From assembly GCA_045600585.1 (NCBI GenBank), contig JAZRYE010000003.1, positions 772-64,771 of the forward strand: DNA of 64,000 nt, given 5' to 3'. Below are positions 10,337 through 35,932 of the stretch, piece by piece. The position numbers and the translations under genes are program-made. Origin of the DNA: Bacilli bacterium (GTDB lineage Bacteria > Bacillota_I > Bacilli_A > RFN20 > CAG-826). Every line of letters starts with the position of its first letter. The stretch's first letter is position 1. The notes under the pieces are model-generated. The model made no database searches. It saw nothing but the letters and a program-made list of their open reading frames with translations, and was not told where the DNA came from.

Positions 10337-10337
10337 A

Positions 10338-18945: not shown

Positions 18946-18951
18946 AAAAAT

Positions 18952-19385: not shown

Positions 19386-19852
19386 AAGTAGTACTTCCTT
19401 ATTTATATTTTAATATATAGAGATCATTTAACAACATTAAATATTTAAAAGAAAAAAACACGACTTTCATCGTGTTTTACATTCAATGTCTTTGTTGAAT
19501 ACAAATAATACATACTTTTTGCAAAAAGTGAATGGAACCAATACATAAAATCAGTGATTTTCGGTAGTTCGATTCTGCTTATATGGCAAATTCAACAAGG
19601 TTTTGAGGTCTCTTTTAAAGGACAGAGACCGTGACCTATTCGGTAGCCTCCGAATAAGCGTACGGCTATCTATTACGGCCCATAGGTACTTGAATGCCGG
19701 ACATCACCATAACTTAGTGTCATCTGGGAAGCGCTCTAGAATCGCTTGCCCTTATTATATATTAAAGGAAAGAGGAAAGACACATTTATTCAGAATTAAC
19801 TACACTTTCCGTCCTTTCAGAGTGATAGATACTAGGGAAAGGAGGGATGAAT

Positions 19853-20149
19853 ATGCTGAAACCAGGCGGAAAGAAGAAACCAAAAATCGAACCGATCCCA
19901 AGGGCGTGGCTCATCGAGTCAAGAACGGCCAAGGGGTTGACGCCGCATGATGCAGCTGAGAAGCTAGGTATGAGGCCAAACTGGTACTACCAATTGGAAA
20001 ACGGAAAGGCCGGAAGGAACCTGTCCGCATTGCAACTCAAAGACCTATCCACGGTTCTGGATATCCCGATAGAGGACGTCGTCAGGGCCGAGTGCAACTA
20101 CCTCGCTTCCATCAGAAAGAAGCAAGATGAGCGCAGGGAGAAGGCCTAA
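19853..20149 (+). CDS. XRE-family HTH regulator (island, GC-rich)
   Basis: AGGAGGG RBS, then MLKPGG... HTH region (TPHDAAEKLGMRPNWYYQLENG). First gene of the high-GC block. Confidence 0.55.
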   Translation: MLKPGGKKKPKIEPIPRAWLIESRTAKGLTPHDAAEKLGMRPNWYYQLENGKAGRNLSALQLKDLSTVLDIPIEDVVRAECNYLASIRKKQDERREKA

Positions 20150-20459
20150 GGCAAGAATCATAATGAGAAGGCTGTACCTATCGAACCTCAGGTGCGAAAG
20201 GGACATGTCCCAAAAACAGGTCGCAAGCCTCGCGGGCATGGAAACGTTCGTCTACTGCCAGATAGAATGCGGCAAACGCGGTAATTTGATGACCGCAAAG
20301 AAGCTGAAGCTGTTAGCCGAGGCGTTCAGAATCCCGGTCGAGAGGATGATAGACCTGGAAGTCAAATACACCGATGACCTTGACGCGCTCAGGGAATCGG
20401 GCTTAGACCCGGAGGCATTGAATAGAATGCACGCCAGGGTGGTAACCACAATCAAATAA
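20127..20459 (+). CDS. XRE-family HTH regulator (second, overlapping)
   Basis: HTH (SQKQVASLAGMETFVYCQIECG). Likely start at the MRRLYL Met (about 20163). Terminator follows. Confidence 0.5.
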   Translation: MSAGRRPKARIIMRRLYLSNLRCERDMSQKQVASLAGMETFVYCQIECGKRGNLMTAKKLKLLAEAFRIPVERMIDLEVKYTDDLDALRESGLDPEALNRMHARVVTTIK

Positions 20460-20473
20460 GCCAAACAAAAAGA

Positions 20474-20503
20474 CCCCCGGTTCATTGAACCGAGGGTTTT
20501 CTT
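20474..20503. terminator. Bidirectional Rho-independent terminator
   Basis: GC-rich hairpin (CCCGGTT-CATTG-AACCGAGGG) followed by TTTTCTT, between the convergent XRE and holin genes. Confidence 0.55.
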
Positions 20504-20879
20504 AATTCTTCAATTCGTCTATCGTGGACTCGATTTGGACGTCGACCCAGCCGTTGAAGTCGCCATAGGTTGTGGCTATGTATGACCTAAGATCATCGCC
20601 GATCTGGGATAGGACTATTCCCTTCGCCTGCGCGAATGCCACCGCCTGGGCTTCCTTGTCGAACTTGCCAGCCTTCTTCAAGGCGTCGACGTAGGTTTGG
20701 AACACGACCCTGACGGCGTTAGTCACGATGCCGGTCGCGAGGGTTAGGTACTCGGCGGCCTTCTCGTTTTTGGTCTTGGCCTTGATCAGTTTTATCAATT
20801 CGGTCCCTCCCCAGGTGATGAGAGGGATGATGACGCACGTGCATAACGCGCTGATTACGTTTAAGAGGATATCGTTCAT
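20502..20879 (-). CDS. Putative phage holin-like protein
   Basis: 125 aa. Single N-terminal TM (LLNVISALCTCVIIPLITWGG) then an amphipathic Ala/Lys-rich tail. Last gene of a leftward phage-like module. No endolysin follows. Confidence 0.4.
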   Translation of the reverse strand: MNDILLNVISALCTCVIIPLITWGGTELIKLIKAKTKNEKAAEYLTLATGIVTNAVRVVFQTYVDALKKAGKFDKEAQAVAFAQAKGIVLSQIGDDLRSYIATTYGDFNGWVDVQIESTIDELKN

Positions 20880-21649
20880 TTGCTTGCTCCTTGTACTTTA
20901 TGGATCGCTTTGTTCTTGATGTGGGCGTCTAGTTCGGTCTCCACCTTCACTACCCTTTCGGATAGCAATGCGTAGTTCTGCTCTAGCTTGTCTAGGGATT
21001 TCTCGATCCTGTCGATGCTGGATTTGATGTATCCGATGTCGGATAGGAGAACCCCTTCGTTCTTCCCTTCGCTCCTTCTGTCGTTCTTCTCGTTTGGATT
21101 GTAGACGTTGCCTTCGATCGTCAGCTTTATAGGGACCGACCTGGAGGATAGGTTCTCCACCTCCACCGTCCCGTTGAACGAGATGGCGTACGTGTAAGGG
21201 TAAGTGTATGGGTATATCTTCCCATCGTCGGTCCTCGTCACGTTGATGACCGCGCTTTTGTTGACCAGCCAAAGCGATAGGCATTCGAGCTCTACGTTGC
21301 TTCGCAGTATGCCTGCCTCGAGCTGCGTCTTGGAGCTGGACTTGACGTTCACGTAGCAGTACTTCGTGTCCTTTAGACTATAAAATAGTCTGAGCGATTT
21401 GCTCTTGGTCACGAATTCCCTCCACTTAGTGAACCCGTCATAGCCTTCGTAAAACACAAGAGCCATCGATATGGTCTTCTGCGGTATCGTCCTTTTTATT
21501 TCGACGAACCTCGCGTCGAACTCATGGTATTCGATGTCGAATTCGAACCCAAGGTTATCGAGTGACTCTATGTCTGTCTTGTTCCTCCCGTAGCCCGTCA
21601 GCATGAAGGTGTTCTCGTTTTCGTTCACTAAATAGAATTTGCGAATCAT
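20876..21649 (-). CDS. Phage-related hypothetical protein (tail/lysis-module neighbour)
   Basis: 257 aa, GC-rich. C-terminal coiled coil (IDRIEKSLDKLEQNYALLSERVVKVETEL) like XkdW/X-type proteins that precede holins. Overlaps the holin gene by 4 bp. Confidence 0.35.
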   Translation of the reverse strand: MIRKFYLVNENENTFMLTGYGRNKTDIESLDNLGFEFDIEYHEFDARFVEIKRTIPQKTISMALVFYEGYDGFTKWREFVTKSKSLRLFYSLKDTKYCYVNVKSSSKTQLEAGILRSNVELECLSLWLVNKSAVINVTRTDDGKIYPYTYPYTYAISFNGTVEVENLSSRSVPIKLTIEGNVYNPNEKNDRRSEGKNEGVLLSDIGYIKSSIDRIEKSLDKLEQNYALLSERVVKVETELDAHIKNKAIHKVQGASK

Positions 21650-21713
21650 TAATAGGCACCTCCTAATGCGGCGTTAATCGAATCAATGTCGACATCGCCG
21701 TTCGTGTTGATGG

Positions 21714-22058
21714 TCACGTTGTTCGTGGTTTGAGAGTTATCTCGTCGATCGTCCCGTTCTCGAATAGGGTCTTAGCGTATTCGCATGACTCCTTCTCGCT
21801 CCAACCGAGCGACTTCTTGTAGTATTCGATGAGCATGTTTATGCCCTCTATGCTCGTTTGGGTCTTTTCAGAAAGCTCGAACACCTTGTTTCTTTCCTCG
21901 GGCAACAGCTCATATTTATCTGTTTCGGGGATGATTGCGCATCCTCCCCAGGTCCCGTGCATCTGGCCGATGTCGTCGACGAAGATGACCTTGCCGATCT
22001 TGCCTTCGTACTGAGGCTCCCCTTCCATGGATATGATTCTGACGTATCTTCCGACCAT
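21714..22058 (-). CDS. Phage-related hypothetical protein (about 114 aa)
   Basis: GGGAGG RBS 8 nt upstream of the MVGRYVRI start. No motif recognised. Confidence 0.35.
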   Translation of the reverse strand: MVGRYVRIISMEGEPQYEGKIGKVIFVDDIGQMHGTWGGCAIIPETDKYELLPEERNKVFELSEKTQTSIEGINMLIEYYKKSLGWSEKESCEYAKTLFENGTIDEITLKPRTT

Positions 22059-22105
22059 CCTCATTCCTCCCATGGCTAGGTCGAAAGGCCATACGACGTC
22101 TCTTT

Positions 22106-22160
22106 CCCCTAATACTAAGTATTATCTATTCTTGGAATTAAGTAACTTGAATTATTTCTT
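22106..22160 (-). promoter_or_regulatory. Repeat-element copy A (TAATACTAAGTATTA palindrome + conserved TTAAGTAAC...ATTATTTC arm)
   Basis: One of four copies of a ~55-65-bp conserved element, all in the same orientation. The palindrome is at 22110-22124, about 35 bp upstream of the 114-aa gene. Confidence 0.5.
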
Positions 22161-22262
22161 CTTCATATTAGGCGCGTTTCGCCAGGCACCAGAAAGGAAT
22201 CCGGGATAAGCCGTCTCAGAAGCCTTCCCGATGCCCGGCGGACGAAATCACGCCCAATGCCG

Positions 22263-22658
22263 TCAGGCGTCTATATGCGTCTGTTTTCCATCGTAATGGG
22301 CATTGATCCTCTCCCTGCACCACTCGAGGTTCGCGTCGTCGCACATCCTGGCGTATTCCTCCATCAGATGGTAGAGGGTGAGCATGTTGGCGTTCTCCTT
22401 TGCCCTCTCGAACCATTCGTGGCCCTTCTTGGGGTTCCTCTTCACCACCGCTCCGTGGAAATAGATGACTCCCAGGTCGAAGGCCATTATCGGCGTCGCG
22501 AGCTCATCGCCTGCGATCTCCTCTAGTCTATTGAGGGTTCCCTTTCCGCCCTTCCCTTCGTAAAGGGACAGTATGAGGTCGTAGAACTCGTGGGTGAGCT
22601 TCAGCTTCCTCATGTCTTCTTCGCTTAGGTGGAATGGCATCGTTGCTTTCTCGTCCAT
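22263..22658 (-). CDS. Sel1-like/TPR repeat protein (131 aa)
   Basis: Real start MDEKAT with an AGGAGG RBS; the longer ORF-track N-terminus is spurious. Sel1-like repeat (GHEWFERAKENANM...). Confidence 0.5.
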   Translation of the reverse strand: MDEKATMPFHLSEEDMRKLKLTHEFYDLILSLYEGKGGKGTLNRLEEIAGDELATPIMAFDLGVIYFHGAVVKRNPKKGHEWFERAKENANMLTLYHLMEEYARMCDDANLEWCRERINAHYDGKQTHIDA

Positions 22659-22674
22659 AGTCGGTTCCTCCTTT

Positions 22675-22688
22675 CGTGTATATACACG
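22675..22688. promoter_or_regulatory. Perfect 14-bp palindrome CGTGTATATACACG between the Sel1 paralogs
   Basis: Seen in sequence. No loop, so it is not terminator-like. Candidate operator. Confidence 0.3.
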
Positions 22689-22720
22689 CTCTAAAGGAAA
22701 GGAAAGTCCAGATGCATGTG

Positions 22721-23164
22721 CTAAGCCTGCGGATATTCCCTTACGAATGGGTGCTCTTCCATCTCCTTGAGCATCCTTGCGGCGAGCTTGCTCCCATGCC
22801 ATTTCGCTCTTCTTAAACAAGAGATGGATTCCTCCTCGTCCTCCAATGAGGCATAGATGTAAGAAAGCCGCAGGCAAGCGATGTGGTTGCCGTGCTTCTT
22901 TGCCTTCTGGAACCACTCCTCCGCGATCATCCTGTTCGGCTTGGTGCAGATGCCGTTTAGGTAGCATTCCCCGATGATTATCTCGTAAAGCGGAGCCGTG
23001 TAGATGGATCTTGCTATCTGAAGCATCCTGCCAAATTCATCTGATGTTCCTTTCCCAGACATGACTTTCTTAGCCAATCCGTCGAACTCCTCCATCAGCC
23101 TGAAGAGCTCTTTCTGGTAGGCTTTGGACCCTACCCTGTGTGCCTTTATTTCTGTCGTTTTCAT
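22721..23164 (-). CDS. Sel1-like repeat protein (147 aa), paralog of 22263..22658
   Basis: AGGAGG RBS. Sel1 motif (AEEWFQKAKKHGNHIACLRLSYIY). Shares architecture with the adjacent 131-aa gene. Confidence 0.55.
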   Translation of the reverse strand: MKTTEIKAHRVGSKAYQKELFRLMEEFDGLAKKVMSGKGTSDEFGRMLQIARSIYTAPLYEIIIGECYLNGICTKPNRMIAEEWFQKAKKHGNHIACLRLSYIYASLEDEEESISCLRRAKWHGSKLAARMLKEMEEHPFVREYPQA

Positions 23165-23188
23165 AAAAGGTCCTCCTACTATATATAA

Positions 23189-23207
23189 GGAGATACTATG
23201 TATCTCC
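23189..23207. promoter_or_regulatory. Palindrome GGAGATAC-TAT-GTATCTCC (repeat-family copy E)
   Basis: Perfect 8-bp arms around TAT. Shares the ATACTATGTAT core with copies B and D. Sits 25 bp upstream of the Sel1 gene start, at a GC-composition junction. Confidence 0.45.
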
Positions 23208-23364
23208 GTAGTGCCATTTTCCGATTTTTTACCAAAGAATTTTTCTATAAACTTTTTAATTATCTTTGATAATTACTTTTACTATAAATTTTTGAGATTG
23301 TGTCTGAGACGCAGTATCCGGCGGTACAATACGACATCTTTTTCCAAACAAAAAAGCGGCCAGA

Positions 23365-23381
23365 ATGACCGCTACGAATAT
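23365..23381 (-). terminator. Terminator downstream of the 75-aa gene
   Basis: AGCGG-N7-CCGCT hairpin followed on the minus strand by TTTTTTGTTTGG. Confidence 0.4.
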
Positions 23382-23389
23382 TGATGTGA

Positions 23390-23617
23390 TTAGTATTCGC
23401 CTCTGCAATATGCAGCCAATTCTTCATCACTCATTTCATTTGGATCGCCTAAAATAGAACCGGTAATTTCTCTTTTTCGATTATTGAGTGCATCAATTAT
23501 GCGGCTATATTCAGAACCAATGAGTCTCGATGAATCAATACCGAACCCAATGCTGTTTAATTCTCTAACATCATCGCAGTTCTTAATTTGTTCCAAAAGA
23601 TCCCAGTAATAGCTCAT
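23390..23617 (-). CDS. Hypothetical protein (75 aa)
   Basis: AGGAGG RBS at correct spacing. Acidic. No motif recognised. Confidence 0.4.
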   Translation of the reverse strand: MSYYWDLLEQIKNCDDVRELNSIGFGIDSSRLIGSEYSRIIDALNNRKREITGSILGDPNEMSDEELAAYCRGEY

Positions 23618-23749
23618 TCCAATTATCCTCCTATGCGCTTATAGTCTTTCTCAATAATCGATTTGTTAAATGGATAATCATTTGAGAAAAAGCATGACAA
23701 TTCTTAGGCAAAAGAAAAGCACCTCTTTTCATTTAAGAGATGCGATTTT

Positions 23750-23808
23750 CCTTTAATACTATGTATTAACCCTATTAAGAAATCAAATAACAGGGATTAT
23801 TTCAGGTT
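23750..23808 (-). promoter_or_regulatory. Repeat-element copy B (TAATACTATGTATTA)
   Basis: Palindrome at 23754-23768 plus the conserved downstream arm (…ATTATTTCAGGTT). Lies between the lipoprotein gene stop and the 75-aa gene. Confidence 0.5.
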
Positions 23809-23821
23809 AATACAGGGCATT

Positions 23822-24064
23822 CTAAATCCAAGGCAAATCGGTGTAGCTCGACGATGTCGATTCCGAATCTTCGGATGAATCATTGGATTCCTGCCCGATG
23901 CCGCTTTCCTCAAATGACGACTCGCGTTCCTCAGAATCCATGCTATCTGATGTATCAAAATCCGAATTCTTAATCGCGGTATCGCCTTGCTTGCAACCGT
24001 ATCCGCACGATGTCAACACCACCGTCAATAAGCAAATGAATATCTTTGAATATCTATTTTTCAT
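23822..24064 (-). CDS. Small acidic Ser/Asp/Glu-rich lipoprotein
   Basis: Likely start MKNRYSKIFICLLTVVLTSCG (lipobox LTSC). The mature part is highly acidic (DSMDSEERESSFEESGIGQESNDSSEDSES). Confidence 0.4.
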   Translation of the reverse strand: MKNRYSKIFICLLTVVLTSCGYGCKQGDTAIKNSDFDTSDSMDSEERESSFEESGIGQESNDSSEDSESTSSSYTDLPWI

Positions 24065-24126
24065 GTCCATGAATAGCAAAAAGCGATAACCCTTTATTGG
24101 AATTATCGCTTCTATAAACCTCAATT

Positions 24127-24270
24127 AATTGTTGTACCAGTTGTCGTAATCTTTGTCCCAGATTCCGTCCATATCGAATTCTTGGGTTCCGCTAGTGGCG
24201 ATTACGTCATGACTTTCGACGGCGATGATCTCAATTGAAGGCAATTTGAATTGTTTCTTTTCTTCCATGG
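24127..24270 (-). CDS. Small ORF (47 aa) with strong RBS
   Basis: GGAGGAACGACC ATG. Peptide MEEKKQFKLPSIEIIAVESHDVIATSGTQEFDMDGIWDKDYDNWYNN. Sits between the 699-aa secreted protein gene and the acidic lipoprotein gene. Confidence 0.35.
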
Positions 24271-24282
24271 TCGTTCCTCCGA

Positions 24283-26382
24283 TTAATCAATGTATCCTAA
24301 GGTTGTTAAGTAGTCGTATAACGGCTCGACGAGTTCGGATATTCCATCCATCTCGTGATAGGTTTTAACCAAATCTACAACACTTGATTCTTTTGTCTTA
24401 GTTGAATAGAACGTCTTTCCACCGGAAACAGCATAAGCTCTAATTGTGAATGTTTCAGTCAATCTTGCAGGATTTGCGAATACATCGCCCAATCCGATAA
24501 CGATATATTGTTTGTTGGTGCTCTCGTCAACATATGTATTAGCGTTGTATTGGTATGCCTTTGTTCTGGAACCAGTTGCCACTTCAATGCCGTAAGATGT
24601 TGGCGAATAAGCGGAGGCAAACTCATCCATGTTGTCCGTAGCCATTCTTAATCTGAAGTCAACATCCTCAATACCGCCAGCACCATATTCGATAACAAAT
24701 GAAGCGATATATTTAATTGTTGTGGATGATGTTAAAATTGCAGAGCCATCTTTCAATTCTACGCTGATTCCATTTATTTCCTCGCCAGAATCTTTATATG
24801 CTGTTACTGAGAATACCGATGTACCAGCTCCAGAGGAAATTGTTAAAGATGCACCTTTATACAATCTGAAGTCATCTTGCTTTAGCCACCAGGCTGTGCT
24901 TGTTCCACTATTCCAGGAAAAATCGATACCGGAATCATTAGCAAACGCATCATTCAAGCTCTTCGCGGTGTTGTTTGCCACAGAGTAGTTTTCATCTGTA
25001 ATTTCACCCATCGACACTTCCGTTTCATGGTTCTCTCTAGTATCTGTGTATCTATAAGAAAGGGACATCCAGGAATTAATGAGGTCTAGATCGTTTTGTA
25101 AAGAAACATCAGCCTCGCTATTCCAAACGGCTGTGAGAATCATGCTTTCGGAAACTTGATCTGCACCAAAATCCCACAAAGTTCCATTTTCTGTTTCCCA
25201 TCCAACAAAGGAATATCCTGTTTTTGTTGGTTCAGAAGGCTCGGCAAGATAACTTCCTTCAAGAACCTCAACATCGTCTCCGTATTGAGAACCATCATTC
25301 TCGTACATAACGGTATAAAATTCCTTGCAAACAGCGCCAGAAGCGAATTGAGGAGTGTCGCCTTTATAGTTAACGAGATAACCATCGATTTGGATTTTAG
25401 CGCCTTCAGCAATTTCATGTGTTGCAGCAGCCCTGTAACAGCTGATAATATCAGCTTCATCATCAATTAAATCGAATGAAAAATTTCCGTATTGTTCAGA
25501 ATATGGGGTTGTCACTTCACCAACTTCACCGATAACCTTATATCTATATGGAGAATTGCTAGTCCCAGTTAATTCACAAACGTCCAAAGCAACAGCAGCT
25601 GAAACAGGGTCAATATTACTTGGATAAACTTTGATTGTGATTTCGTTAGATGTCTCACCCGCTGAATTTGTAGCTGCTATTGTGACTGCACCATATTTTG
25701 TTGCGGTAAACTTGTTATCAACAACTGAACCAAACCCATCTGTAACATACCAGGACAAACCATCAATTGATCCTGATGCCGTCAAATTGACAGTTTCACC
25801 AAGCATAACAACATTGGTGTCTACCGAAATTTCAAGATCATTGTCATCTGTTGCCACGGTGTAGAAAACCAAATTTCTAGCACTTCCGTCATAGTTTGTA
25901 GCGGTATCGGAATTGTAATTTCTCCAATCAGCAGCATTATAGACACCAAGATATCTATTGTTAGCATTCTTTAATGAATTATTTTCCGTATAAGTCCAAG
26001 TTTGCTTTGTTGAACTAACCCTAGTTCCGTTATTAGCTGTTGTGCCATTCAAATAATCGCCATTATCATTTTGAATATAATAAGAAGAGCCGCTTTGAGT
26101 CACCGTCCACAAATTAGACGCATCAATGCTTGAAACATCTGTGAATTCGTGAGCAACAGGACATGCACTTGTCGAAGCTTCGGTTCCTAAATAATAGGTT
26201 TTGTTCTTGTAAGTTGTTGTAATAAGCAATTTGCCAACACCAAAATCACATTCCTGATAATCAGCGCCCTCAGCTTTAACAATTTGAGGATTTTTAAGCT
26301 CAAAAAAACGACTGCCAGTGTATCCTATGGCACCGAAAGCCATGAACGCTGCAGCAGTCACAAGTAATAATTTTTTCTTCAT
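24283..26382 (-). CDS. Secreted 699-aa surface protein with Listeria-Bacteroides (flg_new) repeat domain
   Basis: N-terminal signal/TM. A YSFVGWETENGTLWDFGADQVSESMILTAVW segment matches the GYtFxGW...LyAkW repeat. The rest is beta-rich, Thr/Ser/Asn-rich. Confidence 0.55.
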   Translation of the reverse strand: MKKKLLLVTAAAFMAFGAIGYTGSRFFELKNPQIVKAEGADYQECDFGVGKLLITTTYKNKTYYLGTEASTSACPVAHEFTDVSSIDASNLWTVTQSGSSYYIQNDNGDYLNGTTANNGTRVSSTKQTWTYTENNSLKNANNRYLGVYNAADWRNYNSDTATNYDGSARNLVFYTVATDDNDLEISVDTNVVMLGETVNLTASGSIDGLSWYVTDGFGSVVDNKFTATKYGAVTIAATNSAGETSNEITIKVYPSNIDPVSAAVALDVCELTGTSNSPYRYKVIGEVGEVTTPYSEQYGNFSFDLIDDEADIISCYRAAATHEIAEGAKIQIDGYLVNYKGDTPQFASGAVCKEFYTVMYENDGSQYGDDVEVLEGSYLAEPSEPTKTGYSFVGWETENGTLWDFGADQVSESMILTAVWNSEADVSLQNDLDLINSWMSLSYRYTDTRENHETEVSMGEITDENYSVANNTAKSLNDAFANDSGIDFSWNSGTSTAWWLKQDDFRLYKGASLTISSGAGTSVFSVTAYKDSGEEINGISVELKDGSAILTSSTTIKYIASFVIEYGAGGIEDVDFRLRMATDNMDEFASAYSPTSYGIEVATGSRTKAYQYNANTYVDESTNKQYIVIGLGDVFANPARLTETFTIRAYAVSGGKTFYSTKTKESSVVDLVKTYHEMDGISELVEPLYDYLTTLGYID

Positions 26383-26597
26383 AAATTACCCCTTTCGATA
26401 AAAACAGGCAGTAATCTATTGTCGCTTTGTTAATCGACTAGCATAGTGCGGACTTCTGGGCGCCGCGTAGAGACTCATCAACCTCTGTTACTGATGGATA
26501 TACGCCTGTACAACCACAATATACGCGCATTTTCGTTGCTGCACAAAACATTTTTTATAATTTGTTTCGATAGAATCCGCATTTTTTGACAATTGAG

Positions 26598-26637
26598 ACA
26601 TCAAAAAAATCTAGAGTGGGCCACGCTTTTTTGATGT
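26598..26637 (-). terminator. Nested inverted repeat / terminator downstream of the zinc-ribbon gene
   Basis: Outer arms ACATCAAAAAA / TTTTTTGATGT enclose the inner palindrome GTGGGCCAC. A T-run follows on the minus strand. Confidence 0.4.
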
Positions 26638-26660
26638 TTTGTGTCCCATCTAGATCGTTT

Positions 26661-28645: not shown

Positions 28646-28661
28646 AAATATTCCTCATTTA

Positions 28662-30227: not shown

Positions 30228-30229
30228 AA

Positions 30230-30613: not shown

Positions 30614-30618
30614 AACTA

Positions 30619-31725
30619 CTATCCATCCTTTCTAAGTAAAAATAAGTATTCTGTTACATGAATATCTCTATCTCTTAAGTTTCGGCAACCCCTGAAAACA
30701 TTATAATTCTGGTCGAACACGCGGACATATCCAAGCTCATCCAGCATATTAACCATTTCGTCAAAGGTTATAAATCCTTCAGAATTGTAAGAAATCAAAA
30801 CATATGTGGCATTAACATTTCTGCAAACATCAGCTAATGCATTTAAGGCTTCTGTCTTTTTGTTATATGAAGATTTATTCCACCCAACAGGAATACCGGA
30901 AACATTAGATATCTCAGCTGGTTCTTCATAATTGGTGAGAAGATTTAGCATAAAATAATTGGAACTATAAGGATGCTGGTTATATGGAGGGTCCATATAA
31001 GCAAGATCCACGTGAGGAATCTGTCTGCAAACTTGATTTGAGTCACCCTGTAAAACGTGAACTTCGCTACTATTCATACTCAAAATCGGTTTCTTTACCT
31101 CAATATCAGCAAGGATTCTTTTGAGCGCATTACGGCCGTCACCGCCAAACTGCCCTATTTTAGTTTGTGAGTTTTTATAAAAGCCTTTGAAAACACCAGA
31201 TGTGTTATTTTTTGTAGAAGCTTCATATAAAAGAGGTGCCAACAAAAGTGTCTTATATGGTTCAGGAACTTCATCTAAATATTGTCTTGCAGTATCTAAA
31301 TATTTTGCGTTTCTGCTTGTATAGAAAACCCTTTCTCCAGCCTGGATGTTTTCATCATCTTGAGGAGCATAGAGTCTGTAAATAAATCCATTCTCATAAA
31401 GGGGTTCATTATCCAATCTGTTCTTTAGATAATTGAACCAATACTCCAACTCTTGTTGATTGATTTCGTTTTCATTTGTCAAATAACATTTATTGATTAC
31501 GCAACAATAATCTTCTAGATCGTTTGTGTACAATACTGAAGAGTGCTGTTTTAAATAACGAGAAACAACTCCAGAGCCAGCAAAAACATCAAAAGAAGTA
31601 AGACGTTCGACGCCCAATTCTTCTTTCACTAAAGATACGGCATTATCTATAAAGTCCAATAAAGATCTTTTGTTTCCTAGATAGGTAATTATTTGGTCAG
31701 TTAAAAATTCTTTTCTTTCAGCCAT
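30619..31725 (-). CDS. Dam-family (D12 class, alpha-type) N6-adenine DNA methyltransferase
   Basis: YLGNKRSLLDFI (Dam motif X, cf. WAGGKYPLLDDI), FAGSG (motif I), DPPY (motif IV). The motif order is alpha-class. Confidence 0.75.
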   Translation of the reverse strand: MAERKEFLTDQIITYLGNKRSLLDFIDNAVSLVKEELGVERLTSFDVFAGSGVVSRYLKQHSSVLYTNDLEDYCCVINKCYLTNENEINQQELEYWFNYLKNRLDNEPLYENGFIYRLYAPQDDENIQAGERVFYTSRNAKYLDTARQYLDEVPEPYKTLLLAPLLYEASTKNNTSGVFKGFYKNSQTKIGQFGGDGRNALKRILADIEVKKPILSMNSSEVHVLQGDSNQVCRQIPHVDLAYMDPPYNQHPYSSNYFMLNLLTNYEEPAEISNVSGIPVGWNKSSYNKKTEALNALADVCRNVNATYVLISYNSEGFITFDEMVNMLDELGYVRVFDQNYNVFRGCRNLRDRDIHVTEYLFLLRKDG

Positions 31726-31918
31726 TTTTTGTTACCTCCTCTAATCCCGCTTCTTTAAAAAGTTCTCTTAATTTTCTTTTTGATTTCATCGTTGGTTCAA
31801 ATAACCCTTGTTCCCAGCGGTTGACGCTTGCAAAAGAAACGCCGAGTTTTTTTGCCAATTCCTCTTGGGTACAAAGAACGATTTCACGATATTTCTTAAT
31901 CATCTCTGGATAATTCAT
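31718..31918 (-). CDS. Controller (C-protein-like) XRE HTH regulator
   Basis: Real start MNYPEM, 5 nt downstream of an AGGTGAG RBS; the ORF-track N-terminus is a non-coding leader. HTH (TQEELAKKLGVSFASVNRWEQG). Overlaps the methyltransferase start by 8 bp. Confidence 0.6.
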   Translation of the reverse strand: MNYPEMIKKYREIVLCTQEELAKKLGVSFASVNRWEQGLFEPTMKSKRKLRELFKEAGLEEVTKNG

Positions 31919-31939
31919 ATGTCTCACCTTGGATATATC

Positions 31940-31985
31940 TACACAATTATAACACTTTCTTACACAATTTACTATGTAAATAGAA
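31940..31985 (-). promoter_or_regulatory. Defence-operon promoter with C-box-like palindrome (repeat-family copy F)
   Basis: Sense strand shows an extended -10 TGTTATAAT. The palindrome TTTACATAGTAAA (31968-31980) overlaps the -35 region. This is the classic controller-protein autoregulation layout. Confidence 0.5.
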
Positions 31986-32007
31986 AAATTAAAGGGAAGC
32001 GGACGAA

Positions 32008-32436
32008 TTATGTCCTGTCTTCCCACTTCTTATTAATTCTATTAATAATCTGACTTATGTATTGCTGGCTGACTCCTGACTCAAACGCTATGTCATCCTG
32101 GGTCTTGTCCCTGAAATAGTACATAACGAAAACAGAGGACTCCCTATCCGTAAGGGAATCCTTGAATGCGACTAGGACTTTTTCTGATTCCTCCACCGCC
32201 TTTATCTTATTCTGGATTTTCATCTCCCTATCCATGAGGCCAGGCATCTTGTCGTGCCACTCATGGCGTCCGGGGATGCCGCCGTATACAGGCCCTGGGA
32301 TTGCGATCATCAATCTTCTGACTTCGGATAGGTCCTCTTCCAACCTTCTGAGCCTTACCTTGTTGAATCTCACGAAACGGGCGAATTCCTCAAGGCTACA
32401 GGCCCCAGGAATCGAATAGTCTTTCCATTCTCTCAT
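32008..32436 (-). CDS. Phage late-transcription regulator-like protein (sigma-70 region-4 / ArpU/RinA-like)
   Basis: C-terminal region-4-like HTH (SVFVMYYFRDKTQDDIAFESGVSQQYISQIINR). GC-rich. Its 3' end overlaps the start of the low-GC C-protein gene. Confidence 0.45.
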   Translation of the reverse strand: MREWKDYSIPGACSLEEFARFVRFNKVRLRRLEEDLSEVRRLMIAIPGPVYGGIPGRHEWHDKMPGLMDREMKIQNKIKAVEESEKVLVAFKDSLTDRESSVFVMYYFRDKTQDDIAFESGVSQQYISQIINRINKKWEDRT

Positions 32437-33319
32437 CGTACCCCTCCATCTGCTTCAGGTTGTCCCTATAGGCCGCCATGAAATACTCGGGGACCGACGC
32501 TATCGTCTTCTTGTTTTCCACCACCCTGGCCCTCACGTACTTGAAGACCCTCATCGATAGTTCTCTCTCATAGCATCTGTCCACTTCCATAAAAAGCTCG
32601 TTGAGCTCATCGATCCTAGGCTCATAGATATCCAGGACACGGTCATGGAGAAGGCAAGCTAGATAATAATGCGCCTCGAATGGGAGTCCCCCTTTATCGT
32701 ATTTATCTTCTTTATCAGCTTTTACTTTACCTTTTACTTTTACTTTTACTTTGTGTACCTCTGCTGACATAAATGCACCTTGAGCAGGATTATTGTCTGC
32801 ATTTATTCCGCTGAGCGGTATTTCTGTCGGCATTAACTCCCCCTGAGCGGGATTATCGTCGACATTTATCCCCTTCGATGTTTTTTCGCCCGAACCGTAT
32901 GTTTTGTATACCGATTCCTCGTCTTCCGGGGTCAATATCCAGTGCGGGCGCTCCCTCTGCTTCCTCCTTTGGGTGCTGGCCAGGAACTGCTTCTGGATTC
33001 CCTTTGAGGTGATTATCCCCTTATCCAGCGACAATGAATCTATGATGTCGAGCTTCACGAAATCCCTCAGAATCCTATAGACGTAATCCAGGTCCTTGTT
33101 CGCTTCCTTGAACCTGATGTCGTATGAGATGAGATACGCCATCCTCTCCAAATCGCACTCCAAAAAATACCCGCTGTCATAGACCTTCGCGAGCAGCATG
33201 AAATAAACCATCACCGCGTCAGGGCCATGGTCGTACATGAGCCTCACTATCTTGGGGTCGCTGAACACCTTCACGTCCACCGGAAAATAATCGAGCCCTT
33301 CCTTCAATCTTCTGGGCAT
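32396..33319 (-). CDS. Phage replisome-organizer N-terminal domain protein (Lin1244/DUF4373-like)
   Basis: N-terminal FPVDVKVFSDPKIVRLMYDHGPDAVMVYFMLLAKVYDSGYF matches the phage replisome-organizer N-terminal family. Confidence 0.5.
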   Translation of the reverse strand: MPRRLKEGLDYFPVDVKVFSDPKIVRLMYDHGPDAVMVYFMLLAKVYDSGYFLECDLERMAYLISYDIRFKEANKDLDYVYRILRDFVKLDIIDSLSLDKGIITSKGIQKQFLASTQRRKQRERPHWILTPEDEESVYKTYGSGEKTSKGINVDDNPAQGELMPTEIPLSGINADNNPAQGAFMSAEVHKVKVKVKGKVKADKEDKYDKGGLPFEAHYYLACLLHDRVLDIYEPRIDELNELFMEVDRCYERELSMRVFKYVRARVVENKKTIASVPEYFMAAYRDNLKQMEGYDERMERLFDSWGL

Positions 33320-33351
33320 GGCCTTTCCTCCTTTCTTGTAAGAGGGATGGA

Positions 33352-33415
33352 AACCTAAATACTATGTATTAGACATTGTCTCCATCCCCTTGGACTTAAG
33401 TAACTGACATTATTT
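33352..33415 (-). promoter_or_regulatory. Repeat-element copy D (AATACTATGTATT)
   Basis: Palindrome at 33358-33370 plus the conserved arm (CTTGGACTTAAGTAACTGACATTATTTGC), 35 bp upstream of the replisome-organizer start. Confidence 0.5.
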
Positions 33416-33551
33416 GCTCTTGTTTTTTAAGAGGTCTTTCCTGATGAACGCGTCCACTTCGGATTGCTTGAATCTGTATGTGGTGCCCTTGGCTGGGTGA
33501 AGGTTCACGGGAACTATCTTCCCCTCCTTGATGAACGCCGTCATCCTCTTT
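33412..33551 (-). pseudogene. Excisionase-family HTH fragment (wing half only) fused out of frame to the integrase fragment
   Basis: Frame +1 relative to the integrase encodes MTAFIKEGKIVPVNLHPAKGTTYRFKQSEVDAFIRKDLL (Xis/AlpA-like wing). The N-terminal helix is absent. Confidence 0.4.
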
Positions 33552-34109
33552 CTTGCCTCTGATGTAGACGTAGGTCTTCCCGCTTAGGCTTAGGAAATCC
33601 TGGACTTCCATGTTCGCTATCTCAATGGTCCTAAGGCCCATAGTGACAGCGGTGACGAGCATCGCGTAGTCCCTCTTCTCGATGAGTCCGCCTTTTTCGG
33701 CTCTCCCCCTCGCATATGCTAGAAGCCTTCTTGCGTCGGGCGCTTCCAAAGGGACCCTCTTGAAAAGGTTGTCGATGTGCTCGCTTCTGAGCGTGCTAGC
33801 GATGTTCGGGTAATAGTCGAGTTCGTACGCCCATTTGTATAGGCCCCTGACTATGACCTTGCACTTCTGCGCCATCGTGAGGTGCGTTTCTCCCGGCTTG
33901 ATGCACTTGATGAATTCGATGAAAGCGATGACGTTTTCTTCTAATGGTTTTTCAATGTTTCTGTCCTTGAGGTACTTCCCGTATCTTCTAAGAATCTCGC
34001 TATATGTCTTCTTCTTGTGCTCGCTGCCGGACAAGCACATGATGTACTTCTCGATGAGCTCGTCGTGCGGAAGAGCGTCTTCCAGCAGTTCTTTTCTTGT
34101 TATCTTCAT
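33540..34109 (-). pseudogene. Truncated tyrosine integrase (N-terminal SAM-like domain + box I only)
   Basis: About 190 aa covering the SAM-like domain and the R-box (AMLVTAVTMGLRTIEIANMEVQDF). The HxxR and catalytic Tyr region are missing. The frame switches to the Xis-like fragment after VYIRGK. Confidence 0.6.
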
Positions 34110-35742
34110 GGTTATGTCTCCTCAAGAAAAGAATTGGATTCAAGAACATGATAGACGACGCGGTCGCCGGCAAGATAGACCTCATCCTGGTCAAGTCGAT
34201 AAGCAGATTCGCGAGGAACACCGTGGACTGCCTGAAGACAATCAGGACGCTAAGGAGCTGCAACGTCGAGGTCTTCTTCGACAAGGAGAACCTATCGACC
34301 AACGACACGAAGGTAGACATCATCCTCACCTTCTTCGCCTCGTTCGCCCAAGAGGAATCCAAATCCATAAGCGAGAACGTCAAATGGGGCGTCAGGAAGA
34401 GGATGCTCAAGGGCCAAAGGAAAATGTCCACGAAGACGCTTATCGGCTACACAGAGGACGAAAATGGGAACATCATCATCAAAGATGACGAGGCCAAAAC
34501 GATAAGGGACATATTCAAGAGGCGAGGAGCGTCAGCCAGAACGTGAGCTGGAGGAACGACAAGAACAGAATGGTCGGAAGATACTACCTCCCCGCAAAGC
34601 AGATGGTCGGCTTCGACTTCGACGAGAGCGGCGATGTGATAGTCAACGAGAAAGAGGCCGTATACATCAACAAGCTCTACGACATGTACCTAGAAGGCGT
34701 CTCCTTCCCGGACATGTGCAAGATGATGAACGAAAGCGGGATAAGCACGGTCACAGGCGGCCCATGGGTCCCCGTCTCGATCAGATGCATTCTAAAGAAT
34801 GAGAAGTACTGCGGAGACTGCATCATGCAGAAGGAATACGTGGAGGACTTCAAGACCCACAAAAGGGTCAGGAACTACGGCGAAAGGAACATGATCTACG
34901 TCCAGGACGGCCACCCGGCAATAGTCTCCAGGGACAAATGGAGAATGGTCCAGGAAAGGATGAGGCAGAACCGTGCGAGGTACTGCAGCAGGACGATGTA
35001 CGACGGGGTTCAGCCAAACGCCCCTACCACGCCTTTCACCAAGTTCTTTTACTGCCCTTACTGCGGCCACAACTACCAGATCAAGACGAACAAGCACAGC
35101 GAATACAGCACCGCCCACAATCACGAGAGGAAATTCATAGTCTGCGGCTCCAACGTAAGGAAGAAGCAATGCACGGAAAGCACATCCATATTCCTGGAAA
35201 CCGTAACGGAGGCAATAAAGGCGCAGCTGGATATTCTTAAGAATAACCTATCGCCTTTGAAAGAATTCATCACGGATGGTTTGTCCGAAATCAACGTCCA
35301 CGAAATCAATGATGAGATTGTCGTCCTTGACTCCAAAATCGATAAGCTGAGAGGCAAATACGACTCCATCAGGCAAAAGTATGACGAGTTCTCAATTGCA
35401 TTGAAAACGCACATAAAAAACGAAATCCATGCACTAACCAAGGATAAAATAAGAAAGCAAACCGCTCTCTTATCCTCAGAAGAGGCGTCCTTCAGGGCCA
35501 ACGACATAATCAAGGCCATCAAAAAAATGCCTGCAGTCATTGACGACTTGCAGGACATCGATTTCAGGTCCGTGTTCTCAAGATGCATTGTAAAAGACAA
35601 GAAAACACTTATATTTGTTATTGGTAACGAGGATGTTTCAGGGATTAGGCTTAACTCTAAAACCTCATTCAATGGAAGAGTTGAATACAAAATAAGAGCC
35701 ACTACTAACTATTTGGAATTCGGATTGATCATAGCGAAATAA
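34097..35742 (+). pseudogene. Large serine recombinase, N-terminally truncated and frame-broken
   Basis: Begins mid-resolvase domain (LILVKSISRFARNTVDCLKTIR...FAQEESKSISENV); the catalytic Ser region is absent. The frame breaks at about 34546. The linker motif is duplicated (IIIKDDEAKTIRDIF / VIVNEKEAVYINKLY). Recombinase domain, zinc ribbon (CPYCGHNY...CGS) and coiled coil follow. Confidence 0.65.
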
Positions 35743-35751
35743 ATAAAATTA

Positions 35752-35802
35752 CATAGTTCGTGTCGTATTAACCCTTAACTGATATTCGAACTATGTTTTT
35801 TT
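35752..35802 (+). terminator. Terminator-like hairpin after the recombinase pseudogene
   Basis: CATAGTTCG-N26-CGAACTATG followed by TTTTTTT. Confidence 0.4.
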
Positions 35803-35932
35803 ATGCTCTAAACCGACTAGAGAGTTCTATCCAAGTTCAAATTCATCGGTTCGAACCCTTAAATATGCAAAAATAGTCCTTAAAAGCACGAAAAAAGGGA
35901 CAATACCACGTATTATCCCTATTTCACATTAA

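Follow-up and report, generated by a model that had tools for sequence, protein, structure and literature searches.

Cryptic or 'grounded' prophages are found next to tRNA genes, as is the case of Rac, e14, and CP4-57 in E. coli (reviewed in PMC6379469). The locus described here resembles them in that excision and morphogenesis functions have been deleted while regulators and host-beneficial cargo (e.g., defence) stay, and also in its compositional contrast and tRNA adjacency. It differs from them in deriving from a not yet described phage family of uncultured gut Bacilli and in the destruction of three recombinase genes instead of one. In addition, the phage is inserted exactly behind the CCA, and no duplicated segment of the tRNA is obvious.

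Siphoviruses of Firmicutes that use large serine recombinases (LSRs), such as A118, TP901-1, SPbeta, and the two-LSR streptococcal prophages, share with our locus ∼550-aa LSRs with Resolvase, Recombinase, and zinc-ribbon domains encoded at the prophage end. Such phages are the best phage-database matches of LSR2, the last recombinase of the locus (28–35% identity), and several of their genomes contain two to four LSR matches. To the best of our knowledge, known LSR phages integrate in protein-coding genes or intergenic sites and not at tRNA ends. Integrative and mobilizable elements (IMEs) with LSRs are likewise not found at tRNA ends (reviewed in PMC5704250). Unlike the LSR siphoviruses, the family studied here also has a conserved Xer-sized tyrosine recombinase and an excisionase (xis). 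When compared by layout, it may be likened to the SCC elements (CcrA/CcrB), with two tandem LSR genes, presumably used together, and a conserved housekeeping gene whose extreme 3′ terminus is the integration site, although the targets are tRNA genes of diverse identity instead of rlmH, and the element is a phage. Integration at tRNA 3′ ends, including tRNA-Lys in Firmicutes, has been tabulated for tyrosine-integrase elements (PMC5704250). NBU1, IME_Sag2603_tRNAlys, and phage mv4 resemble our family in this type of integration and in the presence of an integrase and a HTH_17 excisionase, but each of them has a single tRNA target and brings a copy of its 3′ segment, whereas in our family the shared core is at most ∼4 bp, the same phage is found at different tRNAs, and the tyrosine recombinase lies 4.5–5 kb from the junction, behind the two LSR genes.

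Here we demonstrate the anatomy, homologies, deletion junctions, insertion relative to related genomes, and exact right-hand boundary of a 16.4-kb block (∼19485–35932) in a 64,000-nucleotide window of a Bacilli contig. The block very probably is what remains of a single temperate prophage of siphovirus type from an uncultured gut/rumen Bacilli lineage, placed directly after the CCA of tRNA-Lys(CUU).

Results

The block has a mean GC content of 0.429 (composition computed on the window), compared to 0.333 in the left flank (positions 1–19484) and 0.346 in the right one (35933–64000). It is a mosaic of ∼50% and 35–39% GC segments in a genome of 33–35% (Table 1), in agreement with a preliminary description of this DNA, which had reported a GC-mosaic prophage remnant abutting tRNA-Lys(CUU). 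That description had also put the changes in composition at ∼19.59 and 35.62 kb, and neither position is a border with host DNA. On the right side the fall in GC is gradual and starts at ∼35.25 kb, and a relative (L082) is 94–96% identical over the low-GC end of LSR2 and the 190 bp that follow, up to the tRNA. The right end is exactly at 35932/35933, at the CCA of tRNA-Lys: identity to L082 is 96–98% up to ...CATTAA, and beyond this point both sequences split into different tRNAs. On the left side the phage arm continues ∼100 bp beyond the GC jump and is conserved in L092 and, recognisably, in L094, a divergent phage with another host context. The left end would be at ∼19485, with the exact junction probably within 19474–19490, a position based on just two left-end sequences. 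Judged by these homologies, both low-GC ends (19485–19594 and 35251–35932) are phage DNA and not host DNA. The GGTCTCT/AGAGACC hairpin described near the left end is indeed present, with a spacer of 10 and not 9 nucleotides and not at 19598–19622 but slightly downstream; no T-run follows it on either strand. No att direct repeat between the two ends reached statistical significance; these have in common only a 4-bp core or, allowing one indel, a 13/14 match that scores below the shuffle background.

The 3′ end of tRNA-Lys points into the block. The 140-aa gene and the gene for pyruvate:ferredoxin oxidoreductase (PFOR) lie just downstream of tRNA-Lys(CTT) in 23 related species. Being a conserved neighbour of both the tRNA and PFOR, the 140-aa gene marks the left host flank. 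These species provide the empty-site comparison that had been proposed: none of them has island genes at this site, and in seven of the 23 the gap between the tRNA and the start of the 140-aa gene is 59–146 bp. This shared neighbourhood argues for an insertion and against a misassembly. In relatives a terminator is found 10–35 nt past the CCA and, according to the position of the corresponding hairpin in the window, the prophage probably now separates tRNA-Lys from its original host terminator.

At least six assemblies from independent metagenomes (sources: Logan, ENA, JGI, and IMG/VR) contain intact versions of the phage, in which the gene order is xis, antirepressor, tyrosine recombinase, two divergent HTH genes, a small ORF, LSR1, LSR2, and tRNA. 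A block in this order was present in L083, L088, L089, L096, L098–L101, and L176, where LSR2 is only 33–68% identical. L092 and L185 have a complete siphovirus morphogenesis module, and an IMG/VR contig unites Sel1, DUF4314, terminase, and Dit. This common module order corroborates the identification of a prophage remnant at the tRNA-Lys 3′ end. Further blocks colinear with the window are L176 1694–3244, L092 14392–14746, and L185 19447–20089.

When compared to these relatives, the window shows six sharp deletions of 1.3–13.1 kb (∼23 kb in total) with 0–7 bp of microhomology at junctions checked base by base. Lost through them were the catalytic portions of the three recombinases, one half of xis, the lysogeny switch, and nearly all the morphogenesis genes, and these sharp breakpoints are in line with the proposed immobilisation by deletion. 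As the intact relatives are 84–96% identical, and not identical, deletion is deduced from truncated ORFs and not from a direct ancestor. The tight clustering of the six deletions is unusual, with three of them in the ∼1 kb of recombinase sequence that has been retained.

The tyrosine integrase ends after box I (positions 8–65 of 172 in the Pfam profile), so that the box I arginine is the only catalytic residue left. Both this truncation and the fusion to half of the excisionase HTH, as described previously, are verified by a homologue of 315 aa that is intact and has 96% identity over residues 1–190. The adjacent large serine recombinase had been reported to lack its catalytic N-terminus and to contain a frame break. 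Both features were observed (two frames), but this 'one' recombinase corresponds to two tandem LSR genes, so that three recombinases, and not two, are inactivated. The ORF originated by a 1.48-kb internal deletion that fused LSR1 to LSR2 and another deletion that trimmed the 5′ end. Over its whole length, the LSR2 ORF of the window is 96% identical to an intact 551-aa protein (P0005).

The reported gene content was matched by Pfam, PHROGs, and PADLOC, and the low-GC cargo, which includes defence genes, occupies slots that are variable among family members. At the position of cargo slot 1, the intact L185 has a MatE gene and a P-type ATPase fragment (GC 0.32–0.46), and slot 2 holds other restriction–modification genes in relatives (HsdM in L176; an HNH gene and two methyltransferases in L089). 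The ORFs that are still intact encode mainly regulators, the holin, Sel1 proteins, the secreted and lipoprotein cargo, and the defence cluster (methyltransferase, GmrSD, and PDC-S14). A bipartite motif is repeated in the block. Its first half occurs four times vs. 0.03 expected, and its palindrome three times exactly and once nearly so; with one mismatch allowed, the palindrome has six matches across the whole window vs. 0.29 expected. The motif is also present in the intact L176, L083, and L185, and the position of copy 4 is common to L176 and L083. It is probably the promoter/operator of the family, as judged from this distribution.

Table 1. Features and composition of the prophage remnant and its borders (positions in the window).
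Feature	Position	Strand	Remarks
Host gene, 140 aa	18963–19385	-	left host flank; homologues beside PFOR gene in 62 related loci
Probable original host terminator of tRNA-Lys	19453–19480	-	hairpin and T-run; read from sequence
Low-GC left arm	19485–19594	.	GC 0.29; 94% identical to end of intact phage contig L092 as far as 19523, where L092 stops
Predicted attR core AATG	19485–19488		
tRNA-like T-arm/acceptor fragment	19561–19590	+	in left arm
Segment	19595–23100		GC 0.50
Hairpin GGTCTCT-N10-AGAGACC	19607–19630	.	phage DNA; stem conserved in L092, loop differs
Two overlapping XRE-type HTH regulator genes	19847–20459 (19847–20149, 20127–20459)	+	Pfam HTH_3; second 76% identical to L092 counterpart
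Holin gene, intact	20502–20879	-	phrog_13712, E = 4.4e-30; 90% identical to L092
Fusion ORF: distal tail protein (Dit) residues 1–185 in frame with C-terminus of 101-aa downstream gene	20876–21649	-	Pfam Dit_N; intact Dit proteins 274–277 aa
Deletion A, 2.80 kb	junction 21095/21096		inside Dit fusion ORF; L092 9912–10554 = window 21738–21096, L092 13355–14312 = window 21095–20138
Tape-measure gene, last ∼89 bp, and deletion B junction	21650–21744	-	
Deletion B, 13.1 kb			lost: HNH, TerS-like, LRR protein genes, TerL, portal, protease, capsid, connector, tail genes, most of tape-measure gene (content from L092 and L185); L185 6327–19446 missing; window 21744 = L185 6326, homology restarts at window 21738 = L185 19447
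DUF4314 gene, 3′ end fused into tape-measure remnant	21714–22077	-	Pfam
Deletion C, 2.78 kb	junction 22076/22077		lost: 162-aa gene, ParB-N/N6_N4 methyltransferase gene, 87-aa and 146-aa genes; L185 5993–6326 = window 22077–21744, L185 3124–3209 = window 22160–22076
Motif copy 1, AAATAAT-N4-GTTAYTTRA and palindrome TAATAC-N3-GTATTA	22110–22157	-	intergenic
Two overlapping Sel1-repeat ORFs	22263–23164 (22263–22967, 22721–23164)	-	Pfam Sel1; 147-aa ORF 88% identical to gene in intact phage L185
Segment	23101–26650		GC 0.39
Cargo slot 1	23390–26382	-	∼39% GC; 75-aa acidic ORF, motif copy 2, acidic lipoprotein, 699-aa protein
Motif copy 2	23754–23802	-	in cargo slot 1
Acidic lipoprotein	23822–24124	-	cargo slot 1
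699-aa secreted Flg_new/PKD protein	24283–26382	-	cargo slot 1
Segment	26651–27640		GC 0.51
Protein with four DUF4379 treble-clef zinc fingers	26661–27638	-	backbone gene, 51% GC; Pfam DUF4379 E = 3.8e-45; PHROG 559, HNH-endonuclease-like
Segment	27641–32010		GC 0.35
Motif copy 3	27746–27794	-	
Cargo slot 2, defence cluster	27800–32026	-	∼35% GC; Pfam, PADLOC
PDC-S14 (GIY-YIG/DUF4357)	27800–28645	-	PADLOC 2.7e-69
GmrSD/HEC-06 type IV restriction enzyme	28662–30227	-	PADLOC HEC-06 4.4e-27
127-aa ORF	30230–30613	-	cargo slot 2
D12 type II methyltransferase	30619–31725	-	PADLOC MTase_II 4.8e-116
XRE/C-protein-like regulator	31718–32026	-	cargo slot 2
Sigma-70 region-4 regulator, looks intact	32008–32436	-	86% identical to L176 142-aa protein
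Segment	32011–35250		GC 0.49
Lin1244_N replisome organiser, looks intact	32396–33319	-	90% identical to L176 309-aa protein; PHROG replication-initiation family
Motif copy 4	33357–33415	-	ancestral position, between xis and replisome organiser gene
HTH_17 excisionase (xis), 3′ half	33410–33552	-	fragment protein 93% identical to L083 xis
Deletion 1, 1.26 kb	junction 33552/33553		lost: integrase C-terminus, Bro-N/ANT antirepressor gene, xis 5′ half; L083 4878–5040 = window 33391–33553 (94%), L083 6301–6869 = window 33553–34121
Tyrosine recombinase, 5′ 60% (aa 1–186 of 315) and 13 bp upstream	33553–34122	-	92.5% DNA identity to L001, L083, L176
LSR1 internal fragment (aa 78–212 of 564), without catalytic serine region	34116–34521	+	L082 394–798 = window 34116–34521, 95%; Resolvase profile positions 47–144 only
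Deletion 2, ∼1.68 kb	junction 34116–34122		lost: both HTH genes, 70-aa ORF, LSR1 residues 1–77
LSR2, residue 144 to natural stop	34517–35742	+	Recombinase domain, zinc ribbon, C-terminal region; L082 2278–3717 = window 34517–35956, 94%
Deletion 3, 1.48 kb	junction 34517–34521		fused LSR1 and LSR2
Segment	35251–35932		GC 0.38
Low-GC right arm	35743–35932	.	last 200 bp 96% identical to L082, divergence begins at tRNA
T-loop-like boxes	35835–35858		in right arm
Phage-supplied terminator for tRNA	35891–35919	-	in right arm
Predicted attL core AATG	35931–35934		
Host tRNA-Lys(CTT), intact	35933–36008	-	encoded CCA touching prophage end; Rfam 67.6 bits; 100% identical to tRNA-Lys of L005

Discussion

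According to the comparison with intact relatives, the ancestor of this prophage would have been ∼39–40 kb long, with LSR2, LSR1, the small ORF, and a cI-like HTH gene from the tRNA inward, followed by the diverging cro-like HTH gene, tyrosine recombinase, antirepressor, and xis. The replisome organiser, the sigma-like regulator, the defence-cargo slot, further early genes, and the second cargo slot would come next, and the far part would comprise terminase through tail genes, the holin, and the XRE pair. Six separate deletions would then have hit the element after integration, leaving a remnant that should no longer be able to excise, to replicate as a phage, or to lyse the cell. Its cargo, especially the defence genes, could be useful, and we infer that this is why it has been kept.

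It has to be considered whether the block could instead be a streamlined satellite or defence island that is still mobilisable, being excised in trans by a co-infecting intact relative. Both terminal arms are kept and are 94–96% identical to those of intact phages, the replisome organiser, the sigma-like regulator, the XRE genes, and the defence genes look intact, and the promoter/operator motif has been retained four times. However, the many fragmented genes and the ORFs fused in frame (Dit::gp101, DUF4314::tape-measure, int::xis, and LSR1::LSR2) are typical of random deletion and not of a designed satellite, an intact recombinase is missing from the island, as are a small terminase and a gene for capsid remodelling, and the fused Dit ORF (100% identical, 257 aa) was found on a single 124-kb NCBI contig, presumably the window's own, and in no other assembly, all of which makes this explanation improbable. 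Even less probable is the sequence of events put forward in the preliminary description, in which at least two unrelated elements, one with a tyrosine integrase and one with a serine recombinase, integrated one by one at tRNA-Lys and then decayed. The mosaic composition and the adjacency of two recombinase classes in divergent orientation would fit with it, but the xis-to-LSR2 block recurs intact beside a tRNA in relatives, with the recombinases and xis as neighbours in the same order (L083, L088, L089, L096, and L176), which makes them parts of one element. Furthermore, there is no att-like boundary between the tyrosine-recombinase and LSR blocks, and the structural-gene fragments come from the same phage, judged by the IMG/VR contig, so that this proposal is already largely refuted. 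Finally, the least likely explanation is a misassembly, in which a phage contig of ∼50% GC was wrongly joined to a genome of 33% GC and the internal joins are chimeric, as the metagenome-assembled origin of the contig and the large GC contrast could suggest, because both flanks are syntenic neighbours in the 23 related species, both ends have the junction layout of the family (phage-supplied terminator and then TTAA/TGG of the tRNA), the microhomology at the internal joins, all of them colinear and co-oriented, is far under any assembler k-mer, and intact relatives also reside in low-GC hosts (L094 flank GC 0.23–0.35).

The remnant of a single prophage, then, has lost its recombinases and particle genes while retaining mostly regulators and anti-phage defence, which is an ordinary prophage fate. 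The 48–50% GC of the phage backbone may indicate that its lineage circulates in hosts of higher GC as well. With respect to the enzyme acting at the tRNA end, the chances that the paired LSRs, and not the tyrosine recombinase, carry out integration seem to us roughly even, the tyrosine recombinase being a plausible but less favoured candidate. The phage family itself is more unusual: its members are inserted at the extreme end of a variety of tRNA genes, adjoining the CCA end of at least 11, and one phage, 100% identical over the last 1.8 kb, is present at two different tRNA genes.

Insertion between ancestral neighbours

The compositional block noticed in the preliminary description is genuine, as flanks of 33-35% GC enclose a mosaic spanning 19595-35250, and nearly every gene listed for it was recovered by domain searches. 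The hairpin at its left edge is present too, a few bases from where it had been placed and with a longer spacer (GGTCTCT-N10-AGAGACC at 19607-19630). The only tRNA gene in the window, tRNA-Lys(CTT) (35933-36008, minus strand), faces the block with its 3' end. Separately, GC falls to 0.25-0.29 at 10500-12500 and 50000-52000, against a background of 0.33-0.35. Megablast of the whole island found no counterpart among GenBank phages or PLSDB plasmids. The flanking genes, the int::xis ORF and the replisome organiser had no exact-protein entry on record, and scans of IMG/VR with single proteins, namely the fragment of the large serine recombinase (LSR) and the replisome organiser, were likewise without match.

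The flanking pyruvate:ferredoxin oxidoreductase (PFOR) gene has its best match (88% amino acid identity) in a 'Bacilli bacterium' metagenome-assembled genome, which points to an uncultured rumen or gut Bacilli as the host. tRNA-Lys(CTT) lies upstream of PFOR and in the same orientation in 23 of the 42 related loci examined (23 related species), at a distance of 59 bp to about 5 kb. A gene of 140 aa (window 18963-19385) sits between the two in most of these 23 species; it starts 59-146 bp past tRNA-Lys in 7 species and has a homologue in 62 of the related loci. No island protein is encoded in any of the 80 loci compared, and in the 23 species the homologous site is free of the island. As tRNA-Lys and the PFOR-side genes are neighbours in relatives that lack the island, the 16.4 kb are an insertion between ancestral neighbours, and a simple misassembly is therefore unlikely. 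A tyrosine-phosphatase-family gene at 17830-18945 (plus strand; Y_phosphatase3 and a weak fn3 match), between PFOR and the 140-aa gene, occurs at that position in none of the related loci, and distant homologues are found elsewhere in a few.

A phage reduced by six deletions

The body of the island derives from a tailed phage whose intact relatives are L092 (ENA) and L182/L185 (a 36.3-kb IMG/VR contig, IMGVR_UViG_3300014203_002962). These encode terminase, portal, S78 protease, HK97-type capsid, connectors, tape measure and distal tail protein (Dit), followed by three more tail genes and the holin. The Dit_N ORF, holin and tape-measure remnant of the window share 84-96% DNA identity with them, and the holin-bearing segment 83.5%. 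The Dit_N ORF matches the intact Dit proteins of 274-277 aa only over its first 185 residues.

Comparison with intact relatives resolved six deletion junctions (see the table), all of them sharp and colinear and with 0-7 bp of microhomology, which is the mark of illegitimate recombination and not of an assembler. The deletions total about 23 kb, so the ancestor had about 39-40 kb. Also lost were one half of the excisionase gene (xis), the two switch regulators and the genes for packaging, head and tail. Since these losses go together with that of every recombinase catalytic centre, the element is fixed in place, and immobilisation by deletion, as first proposed, was borne out. A PICI-like phage satellite is improbable given the truncated recombinases and the Dit and tape-measure debris.

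Within about 2.3 kb (33391-35742), three of the deletions leave islands of only 160-570 bp, and all three struck recombination genes; this clustering might reflect selection against excision or the repair of recombinase-made breaks. Elsewhere, the two Sel1 ORFs at 22263-23164 (minus strand) overlap by 247 bp, the N-terminus of the 234-aa ORF seems non-genic, and about 470 bp of the region are absent from the intact relative L185; it may be a frameshifted or rearranged gene. The locus as such is ordinary prophage decay with defence cargo at a tRNA, a textbook case that requires no new biology. It is, though, a well-resolved example, with six scars mapped to the base against intact relatives, the recombinases lost and the defence cargo kept.

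Features of the island and of related phage loci
Feature	Locus	Position	Detail
About 50% GC segment	window	19595-23100
About 50% GC segment	window	26651-27640
About 50% GC segment	window	32011-35250
35-39% GC segment	window	23101-26650
35-39% GC segment	window	27641-32010
Deletion	window	21095|21096	2.80 kb; makes in-frame Dit::gp101 fusion (gp101, 101-aa downstream gene)
Deletion	window	21738-21744	13.1 kb; last 89 bp of tape-measure gene fused behind DUF4314
Deletion	window	22076|22077	2.78 kb
Deletion	window	33552-33553 (33552|33553)	1.26 kb
Deletion	window	34116-34122	about 1.68 kb
Deletion	window	34517-34521	1.48 kb
T-loop-like box	window	19561-19590 (+)
T-loop-like box	window	35835-35858
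T-loop-like box	L084, L176, L177, L098, L099	right arms
Bipartite motif	window	22110-22157
Bipartite motif	window	23754-23802
Bipartite motif	window	27746-27794
Bipartite motif	window	33357-33415
Bipartite motif	L176	3048-3106
Bipartite motif	L185	757-776
Bipartite motif	L185	3127-3174
Bipartite motif	L185	5203-5217
Junction tRNA	window		Lys-CTT
Junction tRNA	L082		without isotype call
Junction tRNA	L083/L084		Trp
Junction tRNA	L176		His
Junction tRNA	L085		Thr-GGT
Junction tRNA	L086/L087		Glu-CTC
Junction tRNA	L088		without isotype call; distinct from that of L082
Junction tRNA	L089-L091		Leu-TAG
Junction tRNA	L177		Glu-TTC
Junction tRNA	L098		Cys
Junction tRNA	L099/L101		Leu-GAG

One recombinase module

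The tyrosine- and serine-recombinase fragments had been taken for the remains of at least two elements integrated sequentially, which is wrong, as in relatives both blocks belong to one conserved module. The first 190 residues of the tyrosine recombinase ORF are 96% identical to P0001, an intact homologue of 315 aa; only profile positions 8-65 of 172 are kept, so that box I alone remains, and the HxxR and Tyr regions of P0001 fall in the deleted part. The whole 399-aa serine recombinase ORF, low-GC tail included, is 96% identical to P0005, an intact LSR of 551 aa whose contig (L082) carries two tandem LSR genes, LSR1 and LSR2, of 564 and 551 aa. Against L082, window positions 34116-34521 correspond to residues 78-212 of LSR1 and positions 34517-35956 to LSR2 from residue 144, through its stop and 190 bp further downstream. 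The frame-broken serine recombinase thus consists of two paralogues that the 1.48-kb deletion joined. Its LSR1 fragment covers Resolvase profile positions 47-144 only, and the N-terminal Resolvase domain with the nucleophilic serine, present in P0005, P0006 and the 564-aa LSR1, is absent from the window. The 399-aa LSR2 ORF matches Recombinase (PF07508, 2.8e-22) and the zinc ribbon PF13408 (3.2e-06). The earlier count of two inactivated recombinases was right about inactivation and wrong about number, as all three recombinase genes are truncated and no functional integrase is left in the window.

Five relatives (L083, L088, L089, L096 and L176) share the order xis (HTH_17), Bro-N/ANT antirepressor, tyrosine recombinase and HTH (96 aa), with a divergent arm of HTH (about 200 aa), a 70-aa ORF, LSR1, LSR2 and the tRNA. 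The order is kept even at 33% LSR2 identity, and the fragments in the window lie exactly as in the intact relatives. Annotators should be cautious here, as adjoining tyrosine- and serine-recombinase fragments are no proof of two separate elements. The adjacent and overlapping LSR genes (564 and 550/551 aa in relatives, with an 11-bp overlap; fragments of both in the window) resemble CcrAB-type pairs in gene arrangement; the target here is a tRNA end, not rlmH.

Between the window/L082 and L083/L176 lineages, identity is 90-97% for the tyrosine recombinase and LSR1 and only about 60% for LSR2, suggesting that LSR2 and the adjoining att arm may have been exchanged modularly. The LSR2 remnant (34543-35742, plus strand) keeps the Recombinase domain, zinc ribbon and C-terminal region and has lost the catalytic domain; were it expressed, it might sit on att sites and hinder the integration of related phages.

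Boundaries and att sites

The phage sequence ends in ...CATTAA at 35932, and the next base, 35933, opens the TGG complementary to the tRNA-Lys CCA. Identity between window and L082 stays at 96-98% as far as ...CCCTATTTCACATTAA, after which they run on into two different tRNAs, so the low-GC tail that starts inside LSR2 is phage DNA, and the right boundary is 35932|35933. The return of GC at 35.62 kb, formerly read as the edge, is not the host junction, as the intact homologue P0005/L082 shares the LSR2 C-terminus together with its fall in GC. On the tRNA strand, the final 40 bp of phage DNA form a hairpin and T-run, predicted to replace the tRNA's own terminator, and the terminator at 19453-19480 is probably the original one of tRNA-Lys. 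On the left, homology to phages reaches about 100 bp past the GC jump, to at least 19523 (L092), and more weakly to about 19480 in L094, a divergent phage in a different host context.

In a predicted circular form, the right arm (...CCCTATTTCACATT) would join the left arm (AATGTCTTTGTTGAATAC...). All that the putative attL and attR share is CATT, read on the tRNA strand (AATG on the plus strand at 35931-35934 and 19485-19488), or a longer match, TTTyACATT(C)AATG (13/14 with one indel); neither is above shuffle background. The attB predicted for this locus (...GGGGGTACCATTGAATGTAAAACACG...; in the comparison with relatives, CCATTGAATGT...) resembles the empty site found in the closest relative (CCATTGAAGT...). 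No att repeat matching the tRNA 3' end stood out from the shuffled background (20.8 +/- 2.6, maximum 32). The best direct match, 19480-19505 with 35666-35691 (21/26, score 28), was rejected as att repeat because its right copy is inside the LSR2 coding sequence, and a left junction with core CA at 19474/5 because it misfits L094 and tRNAs with other discriminator bases. Scanned by DNA pattern, IMG/VR yielded 0 matches for the left arm and 2 chance matches in coding sequence for the right-arm terminator; attP was not recovered.

Both att arms contain T-loop-like boxes (GTTYRA..., e.g. GGTAGTTCGATTCTGC, GTTCAAATTC and GGTTCGAACC) at 60-250 bp from the junction, of which 20 were counted against about 7 expected from shuffling, palindromes being counted twice. 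They are candidates for arm-type binding sites, tRNA mimics or relics. The tRNA-like fragment among them, in the left arm, is not a displaced host tRNA end, as it points the wrong way and is conserved within the phage DNA of L092 and L094.

A phage family at many tRNA ends

More useful than the decay case itself is the family behind the remnant. Wherever the sequence of a relative extends past the phage, L097 excepted, the CCA complement of a tRNA follows at once (...TTAA|TGG; 35925-35935 in the window) or after 2 nt. At least 11 different tRNA genes are found at these junctions, a count that takes in the tRNAs of L082 and L088, both without isotype call. Furthermore, the last 1.8 kb of phage are 100% identical in L086 and L088 and are followed by different tRNAs. 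These sequences describe an uncharacterised family of temperate phages of gut Bacilli with a conserved three-recombinase module, whose members reside at the CCA end of many different tRNA genes. Other LSR phages from the same scan mostly have no tRNA near the LSR gene; L148, of another clade and without the tyrosine-recombinase module, has a tRNA-Arg about 320 bp downstream of it. The full module is present in L097 (IMG/VR) with no tRNA downstream of LSR2 (11590-12300), which might represent an unintegrated genome, in which case it would show attP, or a non-tRNA site.

A tentative reading, more doubtful than assured, is that the LSR pair inserts at essentially any tRNA gene, either exactly at its CCA end or no more than 2 nt away, perhaps by using the universal T-loop/acceptor segment as attB half-site, and supplies a new terminator. 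It is drawn from the 11 tRNA identities, the occurrence of one phage at two tRNAs, the shared core of at most about 4 bp and the T-loop-like boxes in both arms. The position of the LSR pair, at the att-proximal end and 170-400 bp from the junction, also counts for LSR-driven insertion. The alternative is that the tyrosine recombinase of the family, together with xis, performs the integration: it comes paired with an HTH_17 excisionase, repeated boxes at such distances from the junction are a layout typical of complex attP sites, and tRNA 3' ends are among the classic targets of tyrosine integrases (PMC5704250). The tyrosine recombinase is Xer-sized (304-317 aa), with a SAM-like N-domain and without an arm-binding domain, and is encoded in the early lytic operon, which favours insertion by the LSR pair. 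The searchable literature, the coverage of which is incomplete, yielded no account of serine recombinases integrating at tRNA ends, and novelty is not thereby proven. If integration is the work of the LSR pair, this would be an LSR system found in nature whose target is short, universal and predictable, and it would bear on how phages choose safe harbours and on recombinase engineering.

Cargo slots and a shared putative regulatory motif

The idea of secondary cargo insertions holds in the form of moron/defence hot spots, as the low-GC slots differ between family members. Downstream of the sigma-like/XRE genes, the window carries a C-protein-like regulator, a type II methyltransferase, a 127-aa ORF, GmrSD (HEC-06) and PDC-S14, L176 a type I HsdM, and L089 an HNH protein and two methyltransferases. 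The slot upstream of Sel1 holds the lipoprotein and the 699-aa secreted protein in the window and, in L185, genes of 0.32-0.46 GC for a MatE transporter and an ATPase fragment. In L185 (44-2271), the MatE gene is of efflux type and the ATPase fragment is the C-terminal part of a P-type cation ATPase; such host-like cargo could instead be an IMG/VR boundary problem. The GmrSD ORF combines DUF262 (PF03235, 7.7e-19) and DUF1524 (PF07510, 4.9e-09) in one protein, is recognised by PADLOC as HEC-06 (4.4e-27) and, with both domains present, is a predicted type IV restriction enzyme. The product of the candidate defence gene PDC-S14, with GIY-YIG and DUF4357 domains, matches PDLC04925 over its full length (PADLOC, 2.7e-69), residues 1-276 aligning to profile positions 13-295 of 301. 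We infer that the surviving intact ORFs, above all the defence cluster, are what selection retains.

A purine-riboswitch-like structure with the conserved junction sequences lies directly upstream of the 699-aa gene (26424-26525, minus strand). Its Rfam RF00167 score of 31.5 bits is below the gathering score of 37 and a riboswitch is not claimed; a degenerate or variant aptamer would be one explanation, chance another.

Finally, four leftward transcription units of the island are preceded by a bipartite motif, made up of AAATAAT-N4-GTTAYTTRA and the palindrome TAATAC-N3-GTATTA, which is also found in intact relatives. The first half of the motif occurs in 4 copies, with 0.03 expected. The motif is AT-rich and each half is a small palindrome; it is probably the early promoter/operator of the family, a putative promoter with two operators for phage HTH regulators.
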